From positions 1 to 11,748 of the forward strand of contig JAZSEI010000114.1 of assembly GCA_045531635.1 (NCBI GenBank): DNA of 11,748 nucleotides. The letters run 5' to 3'. Position numbers and translations under genes: made by a program. Source of the stretch: Acutalibacteraceae bacterium. GTDB taxonomy: Bacteria > Bacillota > Clostridia > Oscillospirales > Acutalibacteraceae. A model generated the notes under the pieces. The model had not been told where the DNA came from. It did no database searches and saw only the letters and a list, made by a program, of their open reading frames with translations. This document shows positions 143 to 9,211 of this stretch, piece after piece. Position 1 is the stretch's first letter. Every line of letters begins with the position of its first letter.

Positions 143-212
143 ACACGATTTAAAACTATATTTTAAAATAATTAGTCAAAAATATATTTGTTATCTTAAT
201 GAGGTGAATGCA

Positions 213-1460
213 ATGTCATCATATAGCGAGCTTATAAAAAATTTTGATAAAATACGCAGTTATATGCGTGAATTCTATGTATATGGTTTTAAGAGTCGTG
301 AGGAATATACCAAAAAAAGCGCTCGTTCTTATGATGACGAGCGTAGAAGAATAGAAAGCTGGCTTGGTGATTATATGAGCTTTGTACGCACTCCAGAAGG
401 TAAAAATTTATTTATTTCCATTGATAGCCGTGTTTCACAGCATAACCCATTCTATAAAGCACTAAAGGCCAAAAGCTTTACTGATAAAGATATAACTCTG
501 CACTTTATTTTGTTTGATATACTTCATTCGTCAGAAGTGGTTATGTCATTGGCTGAAATACTAGAGCAAATAGATGAATATTTAGCTGTTTTTGAAGCAC
601 CAATGATGTTTGATGAATCTACTGTAAGAAAAAAGCTAAAAGAATATATATCACACAGTATAATTGAAGTTCAAAAAGTTGGTAGAAAAATGTTGTATCG
701 ACGTTCCGATAAAATTGCTTTGCCAGATATAACTGATGTGCTGAATTTCTATTCAGAGATTGCCCCTTGTGGTGTTATTGGTTCTTTTTTACTTGATAAG
801 CAAGAAAAGCAAAGCGATAGTTTTAGTTTCAAGCACCACTACATAACCTCTGCAATAGATAGTGATGTAACAGCAACACTGTTTAAAGCAATGCACGAAA
901 AAAGTATTATTAGCGTTGATAACCTGAGCCGTCGTGAAGTTGAGCCACAAAAAAACAGAATCATACCTTTGCAGATTTTTATCAGTGTTCAGAATGGAAG
1001 ACAGCACTTACTAGCTTATCAGCCAGATTTTAATGTAATTAAATCATTTAGAATTGATTATCTATCTAATGTGAAAATCGAATCACCAACACCCCGTTTT
1101 GATGAATTAAGAGCAGAGCTTGATAAGATGAAGTCGAAAATGTGGGGTGTTTCAACAAAGAGTCAACACTTTAACGCATTTGAGCATGTTGAGTTTACTG
1201 TTAAGATTGCTGATGACGAAGAGCATATTGTCCAAAGACTTGAACGAGAGAAGCGGGTAGGGCAAATAGAAAAGCTTGATGATAACACATATCGTTTTAT
1301 GGCAGATGTTTATGACATAAGCGAAATGATTCCTTGGATACGAACTTTTATTTGCAGAATAACCGAGCTTACTTTTTCTAATAAAGAACTTGAAAAGAGA
1401 TTTAAAAAGGATATAAAAGATATGTATCGTATTTACGGAATTGAAGAGGTGGTGGTATGA
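213..1460 (+). CDS. WYL-domain transcriptional regulator with four parts: an N-terminal extra domain (~90 aa), a DeoR/HTH_11-like winged HTH (~aa 95-170), a WYL domain and a C-terminal WCX-like extension
   Basis: The ORF track gives a GTG at 204. I prefer the ATG at 213, which follows the RBS GAGGTGA (201-207) by 5 nt. HTH-like segment: LAEILEQIDEYL...FDESTVRKKLKEY...IEVQKVGRKMLYRR. WYL-like segment: RIIPLQIFISVQNGRQHLLAYQPDFNVIKSFRIDYLSNVKI, with HLLAY where WYL normally sits and FRIDYL in place of the usual FRldRI motif. WCX-like tail: MIPWIRTFICRITELTF. The stop overlaps the next start (ATGA at 1457-1460). Confidence 0.7.
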   Translation: MSSYSELIKNFDKIRSYMREFYVYGFKSREEYTKKSARSYDDERRRIESWLGDYMSFVRTPEGKNLFISIDSRVSQHNPFYKALKAKSFTDKDITLHFILFDILHSSEVVMSLAEILEQIDEYLAVFEAPMMFDESTVRKKLKEYISHSIIEVQKVGRKMLYRRSDKIALPDITDVLNFYSEIAPCGVIGSFLLDKQEKQSDSFSFKHHYITSAIDSDVTATLFKAMHEKSIISVDNLSRREVEPQKNRIIPLQIFISVQNGRQHLLAYQPDFNVIKSFRIDYLSNVKIESPTPRFDELRAELDKMKSKMWGVSTKSQHFNAFEHVEFTVKIADDEEHIVQRLEREKRVGQIEKLDDNTYRFMADVYDISEMIPWIRTFICRITELTFSNKELEKRFKKDIKDMYRIYGIEEVVV

Positions 1461-2368
1461 TATTTAACGAAATTTACTCTGCCTACTATAATACAGTAGC
1501 CAAAATCATTACAAGTGTCTTAAACGATAATACTGACGAGAAGACTATAAATAGAATAGTTAGTGAAAATGCTTTTGCCGAAAGTGTGCTAAGTATTTTG
1601 CCTTCGCTCAAAAGTGAAAAATGGCAGCTTTTAAAAGCAGATATGACTACTCCTATTCAACATATACCTACAATGCCGTTAACACTAACTCAAAAACAAT
1701 GGTTAAAGGCAATTTCGTTAGACCCACGAATAAAATTGTTTGATATAGATTTTTCATCTCTTGACGGTATTGAACCACTGTTCACATCAGATGATTATTG
1801 CATCTATGACAGATATAATGATGGAGACCCATACGAGGATGAAGAGTATATCAAAAGATTTCAGATTATTCTGTCAGCTTTAAAGGAGAAACAATCACTT
1901 AAAATACAGATGATTAATCGTAAGGGGCATAGCTCTTCAGTTTTAGTTGTTCCACAAAGACTAGAATATTCAGAAAAGGATGATAAATTTCGCATTATAA
2001 GCACAGGATGTCGTTACGGAGCAACTATAAATCTGGCTCGTATCACATCGTGTGAAAAATGCTGTACTTCTAAAATTGTCACTCATAGTGCTTCTCTATC
2101 CTCAAAAGAAGTGTTAACACTCCGTATATTCGATGAACGTAATACTCTAGAACGATGTTTGTTGCATTTTGCACATTTTGAAAAACAAGTAGAACGAATT
2201 GATGAAAATATGTATCTGGTCTATCTTAAATACAATAAAGCAGATGAAACTGAAATTGTTATTCGTGTTTTGAGCTTTGGACCTATGGTTGAAGTGATAG
2301 AGCCTAATCATTTCAGGAAGTTAATAATAGAGCGTTTAAGAAAACAAAAAAGCTGTGAACTTAATTGA
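1457..2368 (+). CDS. Second WYL-domain protein (WYL plus WCX-like C-terminus). Its N-terminal region has no obvious canonical HTH. It is a paralogous partner of the upstream regulator, in a PafB/PafC-like tandem arrangement
   Basis: Start is coupled to the upstream stop (ATGA), with RBS GAGGTGG just upstream. WYL-like segment: SSVLVVPQRLEYSEKDDKFRIISTGCRYGATINLARITSCE. C-terminus FGPMVEVIEPNHFRKLIIERLRKQ matches the familiar fG..veVleP..lr tail of WYL/WCX proteins. Confidence 0.7.
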   Translation: MIFNEIYSAYYNTVAKIITSVLNDNTDEKTINRIVSENAFAESVLSILPSLKSEKWQLLKADMTTPIQHIPTMPLTLTQKQWLKAISLDPRIKLFDIDFSSLDGIEPLFTSDDYCIYDRYNDGDPYEDEEYIKRFQIILSALKEKQSLKIQMINRKGHSSSVLVVPQRLEYSEKDDKFRIISTGCRYGATINLARITSCEKCCTSKIVTHSASLSSKEVLTLRIFDERNTLERCLLHFAHFEKQVERIDENMYLVYLKYNKADETEIVIRVLSFGPMVEVIEPNHFRKLIIERLRKQKSCELN

Positions 2369-2384
2369 GTTCGCAGCTTTTTTT
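2346..2384 (+). terminator. Rho-independent terminator ending the WYL gene pair
   Basis: AGCTGTGAAC (2351-2360) pairs with GTTCGCAGCT (2369-2378): a 10-bp stem with one G-U, an 8-nt loop that contains the TGA stop, an A-run before and a T6 run after (2379-2384). Confidence 0.6.
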
Positions 2385-2396
2385 CCGTGTTATATA
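2369..2396 (+). promoter_or_regulatory. Candidate extended -10 promoter (TGtTATATA, 2388-2396) with a weak -35 (TTCGCA, 2369-2374) for the leader/SPFH/rtcB transcript
   Basis: The TGn-TATATA motif lies immediately after the upstream terminator. The -35 is poor, so confidence is low. Confidence 0.25.
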
Positions 2397-2399
2397 AGG

Positions 2400-2840
2400 A
2401 ATATATTGGTAAAATATCCTTGCAAGGTTACTTCAAGCGTGTGTATAAAATTAACCTACACTGCGGTGCACAAGGCTATGCCAAAGTGTATGCCAGAAGA
2501 ATCACTTGCTCCCTGGCAATAGGATATATGCCAGTTATGTTTTTTGATATCTAACGAGGCTCAAAATCTCAAAAGAAATGTGGGTTAGAAAACCACAACC
2601 ATTGTAATGTGCAAAAGCACACCAAACACTATCACAAAAAAGCAATTACTCTGCTGATGAATAGAAATTACTTTTCGTTAGCAATGTGCGAGTTGCCTTG
2701 CTTGAGAATGGATACCGTGTTTCAAACATATAAGCCAAAAGCTTTCTTTCCGCTTATATGTGCGATCACTTAAATTTTCAACCGTAATTGGTGCATGAGT
2801 AATTGCTGATGCAATTTAACCTTTAGGAGGATTATATATT
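2400..2840 (+). other. Long (~440 nt) non-coding leader or candidate structured RNA upstream of the SPFH-rtcB genes. It contains the palindrome CCTTGCAAGG and several direct-repeat motifs
   Basis: No ORF with an RBS is present. GC content is visibly higher than in the other intergenic regions of the window. Palindrome at 2418-2427. TATGCCA occurs three times (2477, 2488, 2527). ATGTGCGA occurs twice (2684, 2758), with AATGTGCAA at 2605. Confidence 0.3.
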
Positions 2841-3944
2841 ATGAAGAAAATTATTATTAACGAAAAACAAAGAGGACTACTATTTAAAAACGGAAAATAC
2901 ATAAAAATGCTTACTGCTGGCAAATACTATGCTTGTGGTGGAAAAGAAATAGAGGTATTAGATATGACTGAATTTCCAGTTACATCTGGTAACTGCGAAT
3001 TAGAAACTCTTCTAAAAGACAAAGCTGTTGCAGATTCTGTAGTTGTAGCTGACGTAGGTGACCAGGAAATAGCACTTCATTTTATTAATGGCAAATTTAA
3101 AGATGTTTTGCTTCATGGTAAATATGCTTTTTGGTCAATTATTGATAAGCACGAATTTAAGATTGTTGATAAATCTCAGACAGAGGTATCAGATGACGTG
3201 CCAGAATATATTTTTTCAAGAATGGCACCTCTTTACTATACTAAGATTGAGGTTTTAGAGTATCAGAAGGTACTGCTATATTTCAATCAGAAGTTTGTAA
3301 AGATTCTTGATGCAGGTACATATTATTTTTGGAGAAACGGTGTTAAGATTGATACAAGATGTGTTGATACCCGACTAACACAGATGAATATTACTGGACA
3401 GGAGATATTAACTCAGGATAAGGTTTCTTTACGCATTAATTTTGTATGCAATTACCGTGTAACAGATTATGTGAAGATACATACCGAGATTGATAACTTC
3501 ACCGAGCAAATGCATGTGGCTGCACAGCTTGCTTTGCGTGAGTATGTAGGAAAATATAAGCTTGACGAGATTTTGGAAAACAAAGTAGAAATGTCTGAGT
3601 TTGTATTTGCTAAGTTAAAAGCGAAAGAAAAGGAGCTTTTTATTGAGATTACAGACGCTGGTGTAAAGGACATTATTTTACCAGGAGAAATTCGTGAAAT
3701 AATGAACACTGTACTGGTTGCAGAAAAACGTGCACAGGCAAATGTAATTACTCGTCGAGAAGAGGTTGCCTCTACCAGATCATTGCTGAATACAGCAAAG
3801 CTGATGGACGAGAACAAAACACTCTACAAGCTCAAGGAGCTTGAGTATATTGAGCGTATCTGTGAGAATGTTGGTAATATCAACCTTAACGGGAATACAG
3901 ATGTACTAACACAGCTTACAGGTATACTCAAGGGTAACACATAA
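2841..3944 (+). CDS. SPFH/band-7 (stomatin/prohibitin/flotillin/HflKC) domain protein, 367 aa. It has no N-terminal TM helix. About 190 aa of N-terminal sequence is made of three tandem ~60-aa repeats that resemble the first beta-hairpin segment of the SPFH fold
   Basis: Strong RBS AGGAGG 8-10 nt upstream of the ATG at 2841. SPFH core: QEILTQDKVSLRINFVCNYRVTDYVK...DAGVKDIILPGEIREIMNTVLVAEKRAQANVITRREEVAS. The three repeats are RGLLFKNGKYIKMLTAGKYYA, IALHFINGKFKDVLLHGKYAFW and VLLYFNQKFVKILDAGTYYFW. Confidence 0.8.
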   Translation: MKKIIINEKQRGLLFKNGKYIKMLTAGKYYACGGKEIEVLDMTEFPVTSGNCELETLLKDKAVADSVVVADVGDQEIALHFINGKFKDVLLHGKYAFWSIIDKHEFKIVDKSQTEVSDDVPEYIFSRMAPLYYTKIEVLEYQKVLLYFNQKFVKILDAGTYYFWRNGVKIDTRCVDTRLTQMNITGQEILTQDKVSLRINFVCNYRVTDYVKIHTEIDNFTEQMHVAAQLALREYVGKYKLDEILENKVEMSEFVFAKLKAKEKELFIEITDAGVKDIILPGEIREIMNTVLVAEKRAQANVITRREEVASTRSLLNTAKLMDENKTLYKLKELEYIERICENVGNINLNGNTDVLTQLTGILKGNT

Positions 3945-4012
3945 ACAATGTCATCACCATTTGATAACTGTTAAAGATTTAAACGGTGTTGTTACAAAGA
4001 AAGGAAATTTTT

Positions 4013-5221
4013 ATGATAGAGATAAAAGGTAAGTTTAATACTGCTTTATGCTATACAAACGAACTTGAGCCTACTGCTTATGCTCAAATTGAAGCAGTGT
4101 GCAACGAAAAGGCTTTCGAAAATTCTAAAATCCGTATAATGCCTGATGTTCACGCTGGTAAGGGCTGTACAATTGGTACCACAATGACTATTGTTGATAA
4201 GGTTGTACCCAATATGGTTGGTGTTGATATTGGTTGTGGAATGTATACTGTAAGCTTAGGTAAGATTGATATTGACCTTGCAAAGTTTGATGAGGTTGCA
4301 CATTCTATTCCTTGTGGCAGAAATGTTTGGGAGGGCAGACAAGAACGCTTTGATTTAACACAGCTTCGTTGTTATAGAAATCTTAAGGATACTAGAAGAC
4401 TAGAGAGAAGCCTTGGCACCTTAGGAGGAGGTAACCACTTTATCGAAATTGATACTGATGAAAATGGAAATAAGTATTTAATAATCCACTCTGGCAGTCG
4501 TAATCTTGGTACACAGGTTGCTGAGTTTTATCAAACCATTGCAGTTGATTTGGATCTAGGCAAAGAGGAGTATTTTAAAAAGCGTGACGAAATCATTAGC
4601 ACATATAAGCAACAGGGTAGAAGAAGTGAAATTCAATCCACCTTAAAGCAACTAGCGAAGGAATGGGAAGAGAAGTCCCCGACAATGCCTAAAGAGCTTT
4701 GTTATCTTTTCGGTTCATTTATGGACGACTATCTACACGATATAAATATCTGTCAGCAATTTGCAAAGCGTAACCGTGAGAAAATGGCTGAGATTTTGCT
4801 ACTAAAGACAGGTATTACAGGTTTTGAAGCATTTCAGACTATCCACAATTATATTGATGTAGATGAAATGATTCTGCGTAAGGGCTCTGTTTCTGCTAAG
4901 AAAGGAGAAAAGCTGTTAATTCCGATTAATATGCGTGATGGTAGTCTTATCTGTATTGGTAAGGGTAATTCAGAGTGGAACTACTCTGCACCTCACGGAG
5001 CAGGTCGCTTAATGTCTCGTTCCGTTGCATTTGAAAAGCTTACTATGGAAGAGTACCAAAAGCAAATGGCAGGTATTTATACTACTTGTGTAAATACTTC
5101 TACTCTAGATGAGTCACCTATGGCATATAAAAATATGGATGATATTATAGCAAATATTGAACCTACTGCCGAAATTATTGCACATATCAAGCCAATTTAT
5201 AATTTTAAGGCTGCAGAATAG
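4013..5221 (+). CDS. rtcB: RtcB-family RNA 3'-phosphate/2',3'-cyclic-phosphate ligase (402 aa)
   Basis: Diagnostic RtcB motifs are present: MPDVHAGKG, GVDIGCGMY (Asp/Cys metal ligands), GGGNHFIEID, HSGSRNLG and APHGAGR (the His that is guanylylated). I prefer the ATG at 4013, with RBS AAAGGAAA 7 nt upstream, over the GTG at 3986 in the ORF track. There is no terminator between the SPFH gene and rtcB, so they are probably co-transcribed. Confidence 0.9.
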   Translation: MIEIKGKFNTALCYTNELEPTAYAQIEAVCNEKAFENSKIRIMPDVHAGKGCTIGTTMTIVDKVVPNMVGVDIGCGMYTVSLGKIDIDLAKFDEVAHSIPCGRNVWEGRQERFDLTQLRCYRNLKDTRRLERSLGTLGGGNHFIEIDTDENGNKYLIIHSGSRNLGTQVAEFYQTIAVDLDLGKEEYFKKRDEIISTYKQQGRRSEIQSTLKQLAKEWEEKSPTMPKELCYLFGSFMDDYLHDINICQQFAKRNREKMAEILLLKTGITGFEAFQTIHNYIDVDEMILRKGSVSAKKGEKLLIPINMRDGSLICIGKGNSEWNYSAPHGAGRLMSRSVAFEKLTMEEYQKQMAGIYTTCVNTSTLDESPMAYKNMDDIIANIEPTAEIIAHIKPIYNFKAAE

Positions 5222-6602: not shown

Positions 6603-7058
6603 ATGTTTAAAGAAATTTTAAAAAGAAGTGTATTAAGTGCGTTAGGTGGTTTGTTTATTACTCAGCTTGTAGGTGTTATTGTTTCACTATGTATAGCAGA
6701 TGGCAATTATTATCCTGTTGTGCCTTCACTTACAGAGAGTATAGGTAGCGAAATCGGTGCAGTTATATTCCAGACAGTTTGCTCATTGTTGTATGGTGCT
6801 GTATTTGGTGGTATGTCAATAATATGGGAGCTGGATAATTGGAGTATTTTAAAACAAACAGTAGTTCACTTTTTAGTGGTTTCTTTTGTAAGCTTTCCTA
6901 TTGCATATGTTACCGAGTGGATGGAGCATTCTATAGTTGGAGGAATTACTTACTTTGCTGTATTTGCAGTAATTTACGCATTCATATGGTTTAGTCAATA
7001 CATAAGTGTAAGAAAGCGTATAAATGAAGTAAATAAAAAGCTTAACCAAACAGCTTGA
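6603..7058 (+). CDS. Small 4-TM membrane protein (151 aa), DUF3021-like. Probably the membrane inhibitor partner of the LytTR regulator, analogous to HdrM/BrsM
   Basis: Four hydrophobic helices are visible. RBS GAGGTG overlaps the upstream stop, indicating translational coupling. A LytTR gene followed by a small polytopic membrane protein is the recurrent streptococcal LRS architecture. Confidence 0.6.
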   Translation: MFKEILKRSVLSALGGLFITQLVGVIVSLCIADGNYYPVVPSLTESIGSEIGAVIFQTVCSLLYGAVFGGMSIIWELDNWSILKQTVVHFLVVSFVSFPIAYVTEWMEHSIVGGITYFAVFAVIYAFIWFSQYISVRKRINEVNKKLNQTA

Positions 7059-7092
7059 GTTATTTTTATATAATTATTTTACACTTTTATAG

Positions 7093-7256
7093 TTTATACT
7101 AAACTCTATTAAAAAGTAGACTTCTTTACGGCGTATTTTGCACCAAACTTCATACCGCGTCCTCGGAAGGCGACAGCCTTCCTGTGGGTCAGTATTCGTT
7201 TGGCACAAAATCTGCTCGCAAATCCTTGTCCACTTTTTATCAGAGTTTAGTATTAT
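7093..7256. repeat. Copy A of a ~140-160 nt extragenic element bounded by inverted repeats, with an internal GGAAGG/CCTTCC hairpin
   Basis: ATACTAAACTCT (7096-7107) is the inverse of AGAGTTTAGTAT (7242-7253). The core from 7116 is about 79% identical over 39 nt and 67% over another 39 nt to 9906-10000. Copy A carries an extra 20-nt GC-rich hairpin (7165-7182). Confidence 0.5.
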
Positions 7257-7427
7257 AGGTTTTACAAAGCTTAATTTTATGTTTCATAAAGTAATTCAAA
7301 ATCTCAAATTTATGTGAAAGATGATAATTTTTATTAATCAGTTTACTGAAATACTTTTTATAAGGCAATTAACTTCAACAGCAATAATAAATAATTTTAA
7401 AATGACGACAAAATATACAATTATCTA

Positions 7428-7456
7428 TTGACCAACCACGATATTTTTATTACAAT
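7428..7456 (+). promoter_or_regulatory. Candidate sigma-A promoter: TTGACC (7428-7433), 17-nt spacer, TACAAT (7451-7456), for the beta-CASP RNase/LOG operon
   Basis: Near-consensus hexamers with ideal spacing. It would give a ~140-nt 5' UTR that contains a small GGTG...CACC hairpin. Confidence 0.4.
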
Positions 7457-7603
7457 TTAAGAAAAGGTGTAAAATTCACCATGTATTTTTTGCTGTATCA
7501 TAATAAATAAAAAAGATTGCCCTTAAAGATTATCGTTCGATTTGAGAAGCAACTTATAAAATAAAGATTTGTATAAATACTAAAAAACAGAGAGGTGTAT
7601 CAA

Positions 7604-9211
7604 ATGAAAATTCAATTTATAGGAGCAGTTCACGAGGTAACAGGAAGCTGTACTTTGCTCGAAGTAAATGAGAAAATTTATTTAGTAGATTGTGGTATGG
7701 AACAAGGAATAGATGTTTTTCAGAATATTGCTTTACCTGTTCCAGCAAATTCTATTGAAGCTGTGTTTTTAACTCATGCACATATCGACCATTCAGGAAT
7801 GTTACCAAAGCTGTATAAGGATGGATTTAAAGGCTCGATATATGCTACAGATGTAACTTGTGATTTGTGCAATATTATGCTGAGAGATTCTGCTTATATT
7901 CAAGAATCAGAGGCAAAATGGCAATCCAAGAAAGAACAGCGAGCAGGTAGAGAGTCTGTGGAGCCAACATATAATATGCAAGACGCAATCGGAGCTATCT
8001 CGTGTTTTCGTAGATGTAATTACGGTGAATTGGTTTCTGCAGGTGAAGGTGTAGAAATCAGGTTTACAGATGTTGGACATCTTTTAGGCTCTGCCTGTAT
8101 TGAAATTTGGCTTTCAGAGGGTGAAATAGAGAAGAAGATCGTATTTAGTGGAGATGTAGGAAACATAAATCAGCCTATTATTCGTGACCCACAGTTTGTT
8201 GAAGAAACTGATTATCTTGTTATTGAGTCCACATACGGAAATCGTCTGCATAATGAGAATAAAAGTAATGTAGTAAACGAGCTAGCAGAATATATTCAAC
8301 AGGCATTAGATAGAGGAGGTAATGTGATAATCCCTTCATTTGCAGTGGGTAGAACTCAAGAGCTGTTGTATACTATCCGTGAAATAAAGCAAAAAGGATT
8401 AGTAACAGGGCACGAACATTTTCCTGTATATGTAGACAGTCCTCTTGCAGCAGAATCAACAGCTATATTTATGCAGTGTAATCCAATTTGCTTTGATGAA
8501 GAAACTATTGCGTTAATAAAGGAAGGGATAAATCCAATTTGGTTTGATGATATATATATGACAGTTACCTCTGAGGAATCTAAACAGATTAATTTGGATA
8601 AAAAAGCTAAGGTTATTATTTCTGCAAGTGGAATGTGTGAGGCAGGAAGAATTCGCCATCATCTAAAGCATAATCTTTGGCAGGAAAATAATATTATTCT
8701 TTTTGTAGGTTATCAAGCAGAAGGCTCATTAGGCAGAAAACTGATAGAGGGAGCAAAAACAGTAAAGCTTTTTGGAGAAGAAATTGCTGTAAATGCACAA
8801 ATTTGCACACTACACGGTTCTAGTGGTCATGCAGACTGTGATGGACTTATTAACTGGGTTTTAGCATTTAAAGAAAAGCCAGAATTGATATTTGTAAATC
8901 ACGGAGATGATAGTGCCTGTGAAGACTTCAAAAAATTATTGATTGAAAAAGGTTATATGGCAGATGCTCCATATAGTGGTACAGAGTATGACCTTGCTAC
9001 AGGAAAAATGACAGTTTATACAGAAGGCAAATTAATTGACCGAGTACAGCTGTTTAAGGGTAATAAACGTGCTAATATGCTTTATAATGATCTTGTATCA
9101 GAAGCAGAAAGACTACTTGCATTAGCTAAAGAACGTAAGGGTAGAGCTAATAAAGATAATGCTAAGCTCACTTCTCAAATTCGAGAGCTAATTGAAAAAT
9201 GGAAAGATTAA
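7604..9211 (+). CDS. Beta-CASP family MBL-fold ribonuclease (RNase J/CPSF73-like RNA-metabolising metallo-beta-lactamase) with a ~100-aa basic/coiled C-terminal tail
   Basis: MBL motifs: LVDCGM, HAHIDHSG, VGHLLGSA, FSGDVG. Beta-CASP motifs: ESTYG...and GSSGHAD. I prefer the ATG at 7604, with RBS AGAGAGGTG 6 nt upstream, over the GTG at 7595. Confidence 0.8.
   Translation: MKIQFIGAVHEVTGSCTLLEVNEKIYLVDCGMEQGIDVFQNIALPVPANSIEAVFLTHAHIDHSGMLPKLYKDGFKGSIYATDVTCDLCNIMLRDSAYIQESEAKWQSKKEQRAGRESVEPTYNMQDAIGAISCFRRCNYGELVSAGEGVEIRFTDVGHLLGSACIEIWLSEGEIEKKIVFSGDVGNINQPIIRDPQFVEETDYLVIESTYGNRLHNENKSNVVNELAEYIQQALDRGGNVIIPSFAVGRTQELLYTIREIKQKGLVTGHEHFPVYVDSPLAAESTAIFMQCNPICFDEETIALIKEGINPIWFDDIYMTVTSEESKQINLDKKAKVIISASGMCEAGRIRHHLKHNLWQENNIILFVGYQAEGSLGRKLIEGAKTVKLFGEEIAVNAQICTLHGSSGHADCDGLINWVLAFKEKPELIFVNHGDDSACEDFKKLLIEKGYMADAPYSGTEYDLATGKMTVYTEGKLIDRVQLFKGNKRANMLYNDLVSEAERLLALAKERKGRANKDNAKLTSQIRELIEKWKD

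Follow-up and report, generated by a model that had tools for sequence, protein, structure and literature searches.

Burroughs and Aravind reportedly predicted, in 2016, a transfer RNA (tRNA)-like RNA associated with Band-7 proteins. In a preprint that refers to it as b7a-tRNA (bioRxiv 10.1101/312249), this RNA is a predicted, unvalidated noncoding RNA (ncRNA) encoded beside genes for an SPFH/Band-7 protein and the RNA ligase RtcB; it is said there to look very much like a genuine tRNA and is put forward as the RNA cognate to the Band-7 scaffold. No further use of the term b7a-tRNA was found in the literature searched. Another RNA linked to RtcB is YrlA (Y RNA-like A), a bacterial Y RNA with a tRNA-like domain whose arms follow the order V-T-AS-D (Chen et al. 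2014, PMC4201824). The window considered here, i.e., the whole stretch of 11,748 nucleotides (nt) from the Acutalibacteraceae contig JAZSEI010000114.1, carries on its + strand, in this order, two overlapping genes of the WYL family (WYL1 and WYL2), a 472-nt gap (positions 2369-2840), and genes for a slipin (SPFH/Band-7 protein) and RtcB (Table 1). The gap encodes a structured ncRNA of ~385 nt, referred to below as the slipin RNA. The best overall explanation, with a probability of about 0.6, is that it belongs to a slipin ribonucleoprotein that acts together with RtcB, and that the window copy carries an eroded tRNA mimic. Within a predicted and unvalidated class of RNAs, the element makes a new, structurally distinct variant of much greater size, and the copy in the window is a reduced one.

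Copies of the slipin RNA were found in 117 places (77 genome sources and 40 metagenome contigs). The 80 loci fetched from species-representative genomes (81 sources in the counts made with covariance models) come mostly from Oscillospiraceae, Acutalibacteraceae, and other Clostridia, plus Dielma, Phascolarctobacterium, and Hominibacterium, and most of them keep the cassette WYL1, WYL2, a gap of ~450 to 600 nt, slipin, and RtcB. In more than 50 loci, DNA-level conservation extends over the entire gap, although the proteins encoded on either side share only 55 to 85% identity (53 to 82% for slipin), and an alignment of 60 sequences shows islands of at least 90% identity between variable stretches. 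The RNA comprises a 5′ domain (helix P1 and two hairpins), a variable central domain, and a 165-nt 3′ domain. The region folds more stably than shuffled sequences in either orientation (z = −4.35 for the + strand and −3.3 for the − strand), and it is the pairs themselves that assign the RNA to the + strand: in the 3′ domain, G-U pairs outnumber A-C pairs 182 to 68, and all covariance-model matches to the RNA lie on the slipin strand. An RNA on the opposite strand was rejected on this ratio and on hairpin B, whose conserved U-G and G-U pairs (54 to 55 of the 57 sequences) would turn into A-C there. The original prediction, which had called for an alignment across related genomes and had offered, besides an operator array, a structured ncRNA comparable to Y RNAs, was right about the latter: the gap is conserved at the DNA level, its helices covary in all three domains, and the relatives display the arm order of YrlA. 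The existence of a real structured RNA on the + strand can be regarded as virtually certain.

The 3′ domain consists of an outer helix of 10 base pairs (bp; 2642-2651 with 2797-2806) around a short variable hairpin (2653-2682) and a long irregular arm (2684-2796). GAUACCG at 2711-2717, A2772, A2773, and CCG at 2782-2784 are invariant, and C2769 and U2770 are nearly so. The covariance model of this domain, outer helix included (R2), matches 77 of the 81 sources, once in each and invariably on the strand of slipin, as well as the 40 metagenome loci; its match in the window (2639-2810) is the third best of the 77. Named carriers matched by R2 include Hominibacterium faecale SF3, Dielma fastidiosa JC13, and “Alloiococcus sp.” CFN-8. 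In the R2-based alignment, 91.0% of the cells are paired, as opposed to 33 to 45% when the strands are slid against each other, and 39 of the 42 pairs show compensatory changes. A plain MAFFT alignment of 71 sequences, analyzed with RNAalifold, retains 30 pairs, 27 of them compensatory, with 88.6% of the cells paired (35 to 47% when slid) and a covariation score of 0.65 (versus 0.11 to 0.17); none of 500 shuffles reaches the observed values. In several high-GC distant relatives (L206:6185-6330, L218, L238, and L232), whose slipins are 26 to 33% identical to the one in the window, only the core of the 3′ domain is kept, and L206 has a T-loop hairpin (GAGGGCG-TTCGACT-CGCCTTT) located after, not before, the 3′ domain.

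The 5′ domain directly follows the conserved promoter and is matched by nhmmer at 2419-2511 of the window with an E value of 1.5e-21. In its closing helix P1, GCAAG (2422-2426) pairs with CUUGC (2506-2510), and compensatory variants combine UUGCAGGG with CCUGC, UUGUAAAG with CUUUGC, and UUGUAAGG with CUUAC. Duplexes between P1 strands from the same sequence average 6.13 contiguous pairs versus 5.30 with foreign partners, a difference not reached in any of 5,000 permutations. Hairpins A and B, which P1 encloses, have together 90.7% of their cells paired, as opposed to 21 to 52% when slid; in hairpin B, the pair 2470/2487 is AU in 33 sequences and GC in 20. RNAalifold on plain MAFFT alignments missed P1, along with the acceptor-like and D-like hairpins of the central domain described below, and these helices were obtained with hand-set structures, covariance models, and the permutation test.

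The original prediction had also listed short sequence boxes in the gap and suggested that the WYL regulators bind them. The palindrome CCTTGCAAGG does occupy 2418-2427, ATGTGCGA occurs at 2684 and 2758 and AATGTGCAA at 2605, and there are three TATGCCA boxes, at 2477, 2489, and 2527; the second had been placed at 2488, and with 12 nt between the first two copies, the proposed spacing of one helical turn does not hold. Judged by dinucleotide-preserving shuffles of the whole window, the excess of these repeats over chance is modest and suggestive (5 copies of TATGCCA where 1.84 are expected, and 2 copies of ATGTGCGA where 0.22 are expected, each count being reached in 5 of 200 shuffles). The near-balanced base composition claimed for the gap amounts to a GC content of only 0.365 to 0.385 (positions 2401-2800), the same as in coding sequence, but it does exceed the 0.175 to 0.275 seen in windows lying wholly inside other intergenic regions.

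The palindrome and the repeats turn out to be helix strands of the RNA rather than conserved DNA words. TATGCCA copy 1 supplies the inner stem of hairpin B, where it covaries with the partner strand (AU in 25 sequences, CG in 18), so that many relatives have TATTCCA instead; copy 2 is the invariant 3′ strand of the same hairpin, and copy 3 is the 3′ strand of hairpin X, which is restricted to the subclade of the window. The first copy of ATGTGCGA is a covarying helix strand, and the second lies in a poorly conserved stretch. The palindrome straddles the likely transcription start, and its 3′ half contributes the 5′ strand of P1. An operator array in which the palindrome and direct repeats serve as WYL sites, with conservation due to protein-DNA contacts, could draw on the predicted DNA-binding nature of WYL1, on a nearly invariant motif that adjoins the promoter, and on the partial retention of the motif around position +1 in second promoter copies that lack the RNA. 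However, beyond ~2430, conservation tracks base pairing, with hundreds of compensatory double changes, the asymmetry of G-U and A-C pairs has no meaning for double-stranded DNA, TATGCCA copy 3 and the second ATGTGCGA are not conserved, and the RNA is present without nearby WYL genes in 6 of 61 genome loci and 7 of 24 metagenome loci. Such an array is therefore very improbable for the region downstream of the start site. What survives of the proposed WYL link is the predicted DNA-binding factor WYL1 and the nearly invariant motif at 2369-2416, which lies upstream of the listed boxes. In sum, the predicted element is real and unusual, its ncRNA reading is right, and the reading of the boxes as operators is wrong.

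Nor is the gap likely to encode a protein. Its longest open reading frame (ORF), put at 38 amino acids (aa), has that length for some choices of start codon, but GTG and TTG starts give ORFs of 54 to 55 aa, which the relatives do not keep; among 60 relatives, lengths are spread evenly across the three frames, and the median relative has at least four stops per frame, so that a coding function was rejected. A viral association was rejected as well: a 15-base pattern picked up at least 120 viral stretches, but R2 discarded all 80 screened among the matches listed, which marks them as chance matches. A blastn search of the gap against plasmid and phage collections gave no match, and no close relatives of the slipin were found in viral contigs. 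Likewise, no Rfam 15 family matched the window at the gathering threshold, and searches of the window and 17 relatives at gathering and permissive thresholds (E values up to 10 for the window) returned for the RNA only chance hairpins and a single T-arm match to transfer-messenger RNA (tmRNA). Large, intricate folds with no known catalytic or sensing role are also typical of OLE, ROOL, GOLLD, and raiA RNAs, none of which was matched in Rfam, and the gene context and sequence of these RNAs, and of vault RNA, differ from those of the slipin RNA. The suspected protein-cage partner of the slipin RNA has its counterpart in the major vault protein of vault RNA. The vault shoulder domain of that protein resembles SPFH.

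The likeness to tRNA resides in the central domain of the relatives. In nearly all of them, a T arm is directly followed by a closed acceptor-like hairpin of 7 bp and then by a small D-like hairpin with a YGGU loop in which the GG is invariant. A covariance model of this tRNA-like module (R1) detects it in 62 genome and 30 metagenome loci; there were 31 metagenome matches, one of which (L228 806-898, opposite strand) falls outside the RNA. In the R1 alignment, 85.1% of the cells are paired, as opposed to 26 to 49% when slid (99.7% in the T arm and 89.5% in the D-like hairpin), and in the acceptor-like hairpin each of the seven pairs has compensatory changes. The T loop reads UUCGAAU in 49 of the 62 genome copies, and 44 of the 62 have a linker of 7 nt before the T arm. 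Upstream of the T arm, the relatives often have a hairpin that resembles an anticodon arm, with a 7-nt CU-NNN-AA loop. In most relatives, the central domain is a circularly permuted tRNA mimic, in the order upstream hairpin, T arm, closed acceptor, and D arm.

The triplets in the anticodon-like position, counted among unique variants, are GUC (8 times), UUU (4), GUU (2), and UUG (2), followed by GUA, GAC, and UAC; the hairpin lies 7 nt upstream of the T arm, e.g., in L012 (315-331) and L016 (3700-3716). These triplets may reflect a tRNA-Asp-like ancestor, and, as a matter of speculation, they could be linked to the targets of anticodon nucleases.

The order of the arms (upstream stem-loop, T arm, closed acceptor-like stem-loop, D arm) is the one found in YrlA, and the module shares with YrlA a canonical T loop, a retained GG in the D loop, and a place inside an RtcB-containing operon. 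This order is seen in the 62 genome and 30 metagenome relatives and is absent from the window itself. The Ro-binding stem that YrlA forms from its 5′ and 3′ ends is replaced here by the unrelated 5′ and 3′ domains, the slipin RNA is ~4 times longer and gave no Rfam match in the searches made, and its partner is slipin; no Ro60/TROVE domain was found by Pfam in the 10 ORFs of the window. The relatives also share with tRNA and the tRNA-like domain of tmRNA the 5-bp T stem and the UUCGAAU loop, and the sole weak Rfam match is to the T arm of tmRNA (E value of 0.0012), but the module differs from tRNA in having neither a free acceptor end nor CCA. No canonical tRNA was found upstream of the distant slipins.

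In the window, this core is largely gone. R1 scores only 2.7 bits there (E value of 0.56); the acceptor-like and D-like hairpins, which take up 32 positions in the model, have given way to 7 nt. The T loop carries mutations, ARAGORN reports no tRNA, and no tRNA-like fold can be recognized. Two close relatives (L001 and L005) also lack the acceptor-like and D-like hairpins, and a third (L002) lacks the T arm altogether. The loss of the tRNA-like core from these four copies shows that the mimic can disappear while the 5′ and 3′ domains remain, and the window copy has both of these domains as well as the position upstream of slipin that define the family.

As for b7a-tRNA, the slipin RNA has the same Band-7 and RtcB gene context as the RNA described in the preprint, and the tRNA-like module of the relatives also fits that description. 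On the basis of the identical gene context, the slipin RNA appears to be the b7a-tRNA of 2016, as far as the second-hand description available for comparison goes. According to that description, b7a-tRNA closely resembles a genuine tRNA, whereas here the tRNA-like part is permuted, has a closed acceptor, and is embedded in an RNA of ~385 to 450 nt, in which conservation is higher in the 5′ and 3′ domains than in the tRNA-like part that the window has largely lost. A homology of the slipin RNA to the family of tRNA-like RNAs is highly probable.

Slipin is the constant partner of this RNA. A metagenome scan with a pattern drawn from the RNA only gave 46 matches, of which R2 confirms 40; the 6 rejected ones correspond to the number expected by chance. 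Among the 31 confirmed copies with at least 900 nt of downstream sequence, 30 are followed by a slipin homolog on the same strand, in some cases one only 26 to 33% identical to the slipin in the window. The remaining copy (L201) has a truncated slipin ORF (MKKMIINENQKGFLFKNGKYMKLL..., 3255-3378) behind an intact RNA, which is either a pseudogene or an assembly artifact. The other neighbors are less constant. Among loci with enough upstream sequence, 55 of the 61 from genomes and 17 of the 24 from metagenomes have WYL2 before the RNA; RtcB lies downstream in 49 of 64 genome and 9 of 16 metagenome loci. The end of the RNA is separated from slipin by a median of 34 nt. In 12 loci, an unrelated ORF of ~210 to 250 aa stands between the RNA and slipin. 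This intervening ORF is conserved and has no Pfam match (L019:3228-3980, L037:3243-3986, L020, L024, and ~8 metagenome loci, such as L202, L204, and L239).

The proposed mechanism starts from a promoter of the sigma-A type, with the invariant motif upstream of it as the likely site of WYL1/WYL2. The ncRNA would form the 5′ end of the slipin-rtcB transcript, being presumably cotranscribed with slipin, and would act, as RNA subunit or scaffold, in a slipin ribonucleoprotein that cooperates with RtcB, by analogy with Ro60 and Y RNA in the rsr-yrlBA-rtcBA system. The invariant loops of the 3′ domain may provide the protein-binding handle, with the tRNA-like module as an accessory adaptor.

A rival reading is a purely cis-acting 5′ leader that controls the stability or translation of the slipin-rtcB mRNA and has no separate role as an RNA, with slipin, the WYL proteins, a tRNA, or a metabolite as its possible ligand. 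The RNA begins at the likely transcription start and ends shortly before slipin, there is no terminator between the RNA and the coding sequence, and in the minimum-energy fold of the window the 5′ end closes onto the Shine-Dalgarno region. That pairing is not conserved in the relatives and was rejected as a family feature, and the predicted accessibility of the Shine-Dalgarno sequence (0.37, with a transcript average of 0.39) also fails to favor a leader, although this is a weak and uninformative test. The RNA has no conserved expression platform of the terminator/antiterminator kind, and the features of a riboswitch, a T-box, or an attenuator leader are missing, with no Rfam aptamer class and no terminator in 2200-3000. 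Moreover, the unrelated ORF separates the RNA from slipin in the 12 loci mentioned above, the second copies of the promoter, before an extra gene and RtcB, have a short leader and no RNA, and the combination of a T arm, a closed acceptor, and a D arm is typical of trans-acting ribonucleoprotein RNAs, such as YrlA. A leader of this kind is thus rather unlikely. That the RNA acts in trans as a partner of slipin instead of purely in cis has somewhat better than even chances; counted in its favor are the lack of an expression platform, the intervening ORFs, the second promoters devoid of the RNA, and the tRNA-mimic architecture.

Several observations weigh against a slipin ribonucleoprotein RNA equipped with a tRNA mimic. 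The tRNA-like core is absent from the copies in the window, L001, L005, and L002, so that a function that depends on tRNA mimicry cannot apply to the window copy. ARAGORN and the Rfam tRNA model mostly reject the module, even though b7a-tRNA is described as a close lookalike of tRNA: ARAGORN reports aberrant “tRNAs” in 10 of 60 relatives, with odd anticodon positions and inconsistent identities, and the Rfam tRNA model stays below threshold at the leader in 16 of 16 relatives. The identification with b7a-tRNA draws on gene context and on a description that is itself second-hand. The motif at +1, YTGYAAG, is kept in the second promoter copies that lack the RNA and may have an additional role at the DNA level. 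Finally, the very lack of a terminator between the 5′ leader and slipin leaves room for a role in cis, in mRNA stability, translation, or protein-mediated autoregulation.

The tRNA-like module also suggests a sentinel or decoy, in which a tRNA-shaped bait at the start of the repair operon would be cut by ribotoxins, the cut either giving the signal that WYL1/WYL2 sense or being religated by RtcB. In the full form of this scheme, a cytosolic slipin assembly would hold the bait, the broken ends would switch on WYL1/WYL2, and RtcB would reseal the bait and reset the circuit. In line with this scheme are the module itself and the hairpin with its CU-NNN-AA loop, in which GUC, UUU, GUU, and UUG are the commonest triplets, the linkage to RtcB in most loci, and the binding of single-stranded nucleic acid by the WYL domains of DriD, PafBC, and CapW in PDB entries; in addition, RtcR-controlled operons are reported to be induced by tRNA fragments (PMC7790460). 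However, not every copy has the anticodon-like hairpin, which also differs from copy to copy, the subclade of the window does without the entire tRNA-like core, and RtcB is absent from the neighborhood in about a quarter to a half of the loci, all of which makes this circuit improbable, both as an account of the RNA and in its full form. If it did operate, it would be a self-reporting RNA repair circuit, an analog of the response of RtcR to tRNA halves with a dedicated RNA sensor.

With the slipin ribonucleoprotein as the preferred explanation, the RNA bears on the question of what bacterial RtcB ligases repair and on the role of the scaffold proteins of the SPFH and Ro types whose genes lie beside theirs. 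A nine-year-old unvalidated prediction becomes a concrete RNA family, not represented in Rfam 15, with over 100 aligned members, a secondary structure backed by covariation, two working covariance models, a defined promoter, and an obligate protein neighbor. Because the best-conserved parts are the two new domains and the mimic is dispensable, it is in those domains that the slipin-binding site and the core function should now be sought. The three named strains that carry the cassette make a bacterial SPFH-RNA particle in RNA repair a directly testable idea.

Table 1. Positions of the slipin RNA, its structural elements, and neighboring features in the window
Feature	Position	Strand	Details
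Structured ncRNA (slipin RNA), ~385 nt	~2422..2806	+	Fold z score, DNA-level conservation, covariation in all domains
Helix P1	2422..2510	+	Encloses hairpins A and B
Hairpin A	2437..2464	+	7 pairs, all changed on both sides; 80% of cells paired
Hairpin B (GGUGCAC..GGC-UAU-GCC..GUGUAUGCC)	2465..2494	+	Outer stem 98.5% and inner stem 97.5% paired; holds TATGCCA copies 1 and 2
Hairpin X	2514..2533	+	Only in the subclade of the window (window, L001, L005, L002); 8 pairs, 2 compensatory; holds TATGCCA copy 3
Anticodon-arm-like hairpin, GAGG-CUCAAAA-UCUC	2556..2570	+	4 bp, 7-nt loop; aligned to the upstream hairpin of R1; homologous hairpins in relatives
Degenerate T arm, GUGGG-UUAGAAA-ACCAC	2580..2596	+	Relatives have canonical GCGGG-UUCGAAU-CCCGC
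Small hairpin H4, GUGC-AAAA-GCAC	2609..2620	+	Single-sequence folds (window, relatives) and alignment
3′ domain	2642..2806	+	R2 match, 151 bits, E value 4e-39
Terminator-like hairpin of the WYL operon, then T run	2346..2384	+	Inverted repeat; 14 pairs kept in 43 to 59 of 60 sequences
Motif GTTCGCAGC-T7-CCGTG, including −35-like hexamer	2369..2392	.	At least 90% identity in 60 loci
Extended −10 box TGGTAAAAT	2407..2415	+	Conserved; 17-nt spacer from the −35-like hexamer
Palindrome CCTTGCAAGG, likely start at ~2422	2418..2427	+	Only the TTGCAAGG part is conserved
Slipin Shine-Dalgarno sequence, AGGAGG	2825..2830	+	Read from the sequence
WYL1 gene	204..1460	+	Pfam WYL, weak WCX match; predicted wHTH-WYL-WCX transcription factor (wHTH, winged helix-turn-helix)
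WYL2 gene	1457..2368	+	Pfam WCX; paralog/partner of WYL1; 4-nt overlap with WYL1
Slipin (SPFH/Band-7) gene	2841..3944	+	Pfam Band_7, E value 4e-31
RtcB RNA ligase gene	3986..5221	+	Pfam RtcB, E value 3e-57

The promoter of the slipin RNA is well conserved, with its profile matching 72 of the 81 sources; the transcription start at ~2422 was derived from the distance to the −10 box, and the ends of the RNA are likewise inferred. The consensus of the −35-like hexamer is GTGAAA (within CCGTGA), and in the window it reads GTGTTA. In the terminator-like hairpin (2346-2389), the 3′ half (GTTCGCAGC) is nearly invariant and far more conserved than the 5′ half, an unusual pattern for a simple terminator that points to recognition of the sequence itself. 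A simple terminator scan of 2200-3000 found no terminator-like site on either strand, and it did not flag this hairpin either. The motif at 2369-2392 is, judging from its sequence conservation, a candidate WYL operator and/or UP element. The second promoter copies are found in 7 loci of one clade, downstream of slipin. They repeat the same unit (terminator hairpin, T7, CCGTGA, and TGGTAAAAT) ahead of the extra gene that lies upstream of RtcB. Such units are seen, e.g., in L036 (5135-5209) and also in L038, L041, L042, L044, L045, L066, L052, and L043, and the extra gene behind them encodes a protein of ~180 aa with a weak DUF2247 match.

Sequence searches with WYL1 and WYL2 against PDB chains gave no match, and the fold search alone was informative. 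The AlphaFold2 model of WYL1 is poor overall, with a mean predicted local distance difference test (pLDDT) score of 59.5, but its winged-helix, WYL, and WCX segments reach 70 to 90, and the winged helix is confident at approximately residues 91 to 165. The best fold matches found by Foldseek in the PDB are DriD, CapW, PafBC, and BrxR, with E values of ~1e-9. The model makes WYL1 a predicted member of the DriD/PafBC/CapW/BrxR class of DNA-binding factors, and both neighboring WYL proteins are predicted to belong to the DriD/PafBC/CapW fold class. As with PafB and PafC, two adjacent paralogs of the wHTH-WYL-WCX architecture are involved, and, as in DriD/PafBC-type promoters, the conserved motif is immediately upstream of the −10 box. 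This likeness concerns the promoter (2369-2416) and not the RNA, and the binding of WYL proteins to it is putative. In its sequence and spacing, the promoter motif is unlike the mycobacterial PafBC motif.

In the slipin of the window, ~140 residues (encoded by 2841-3260) precede the SPFH domain and contain three repeats of the NGK(Y/F)..L.AGKY type. An obvious membrane segment is lacking from this N-terminal part, pointing to a cytosolic location of this SPFH protein. An exact look-up of the protein returned no record, and its close relatives number in the thousands. Elsewhere in the window, a GC bump (0.335 to 0.37 at 7001-7300) with no Rfam match opens the otherwise AT-rich gap at 7059-7594, upstream of a beta-CASP/RNase J-like gene. 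Among the fetched loci, L069 carries at 8160-8265 a tetrahydrofolate (THF) riboswitch (Rfam RF01831, 87 bits), which is unrelated to the slipin RNA.

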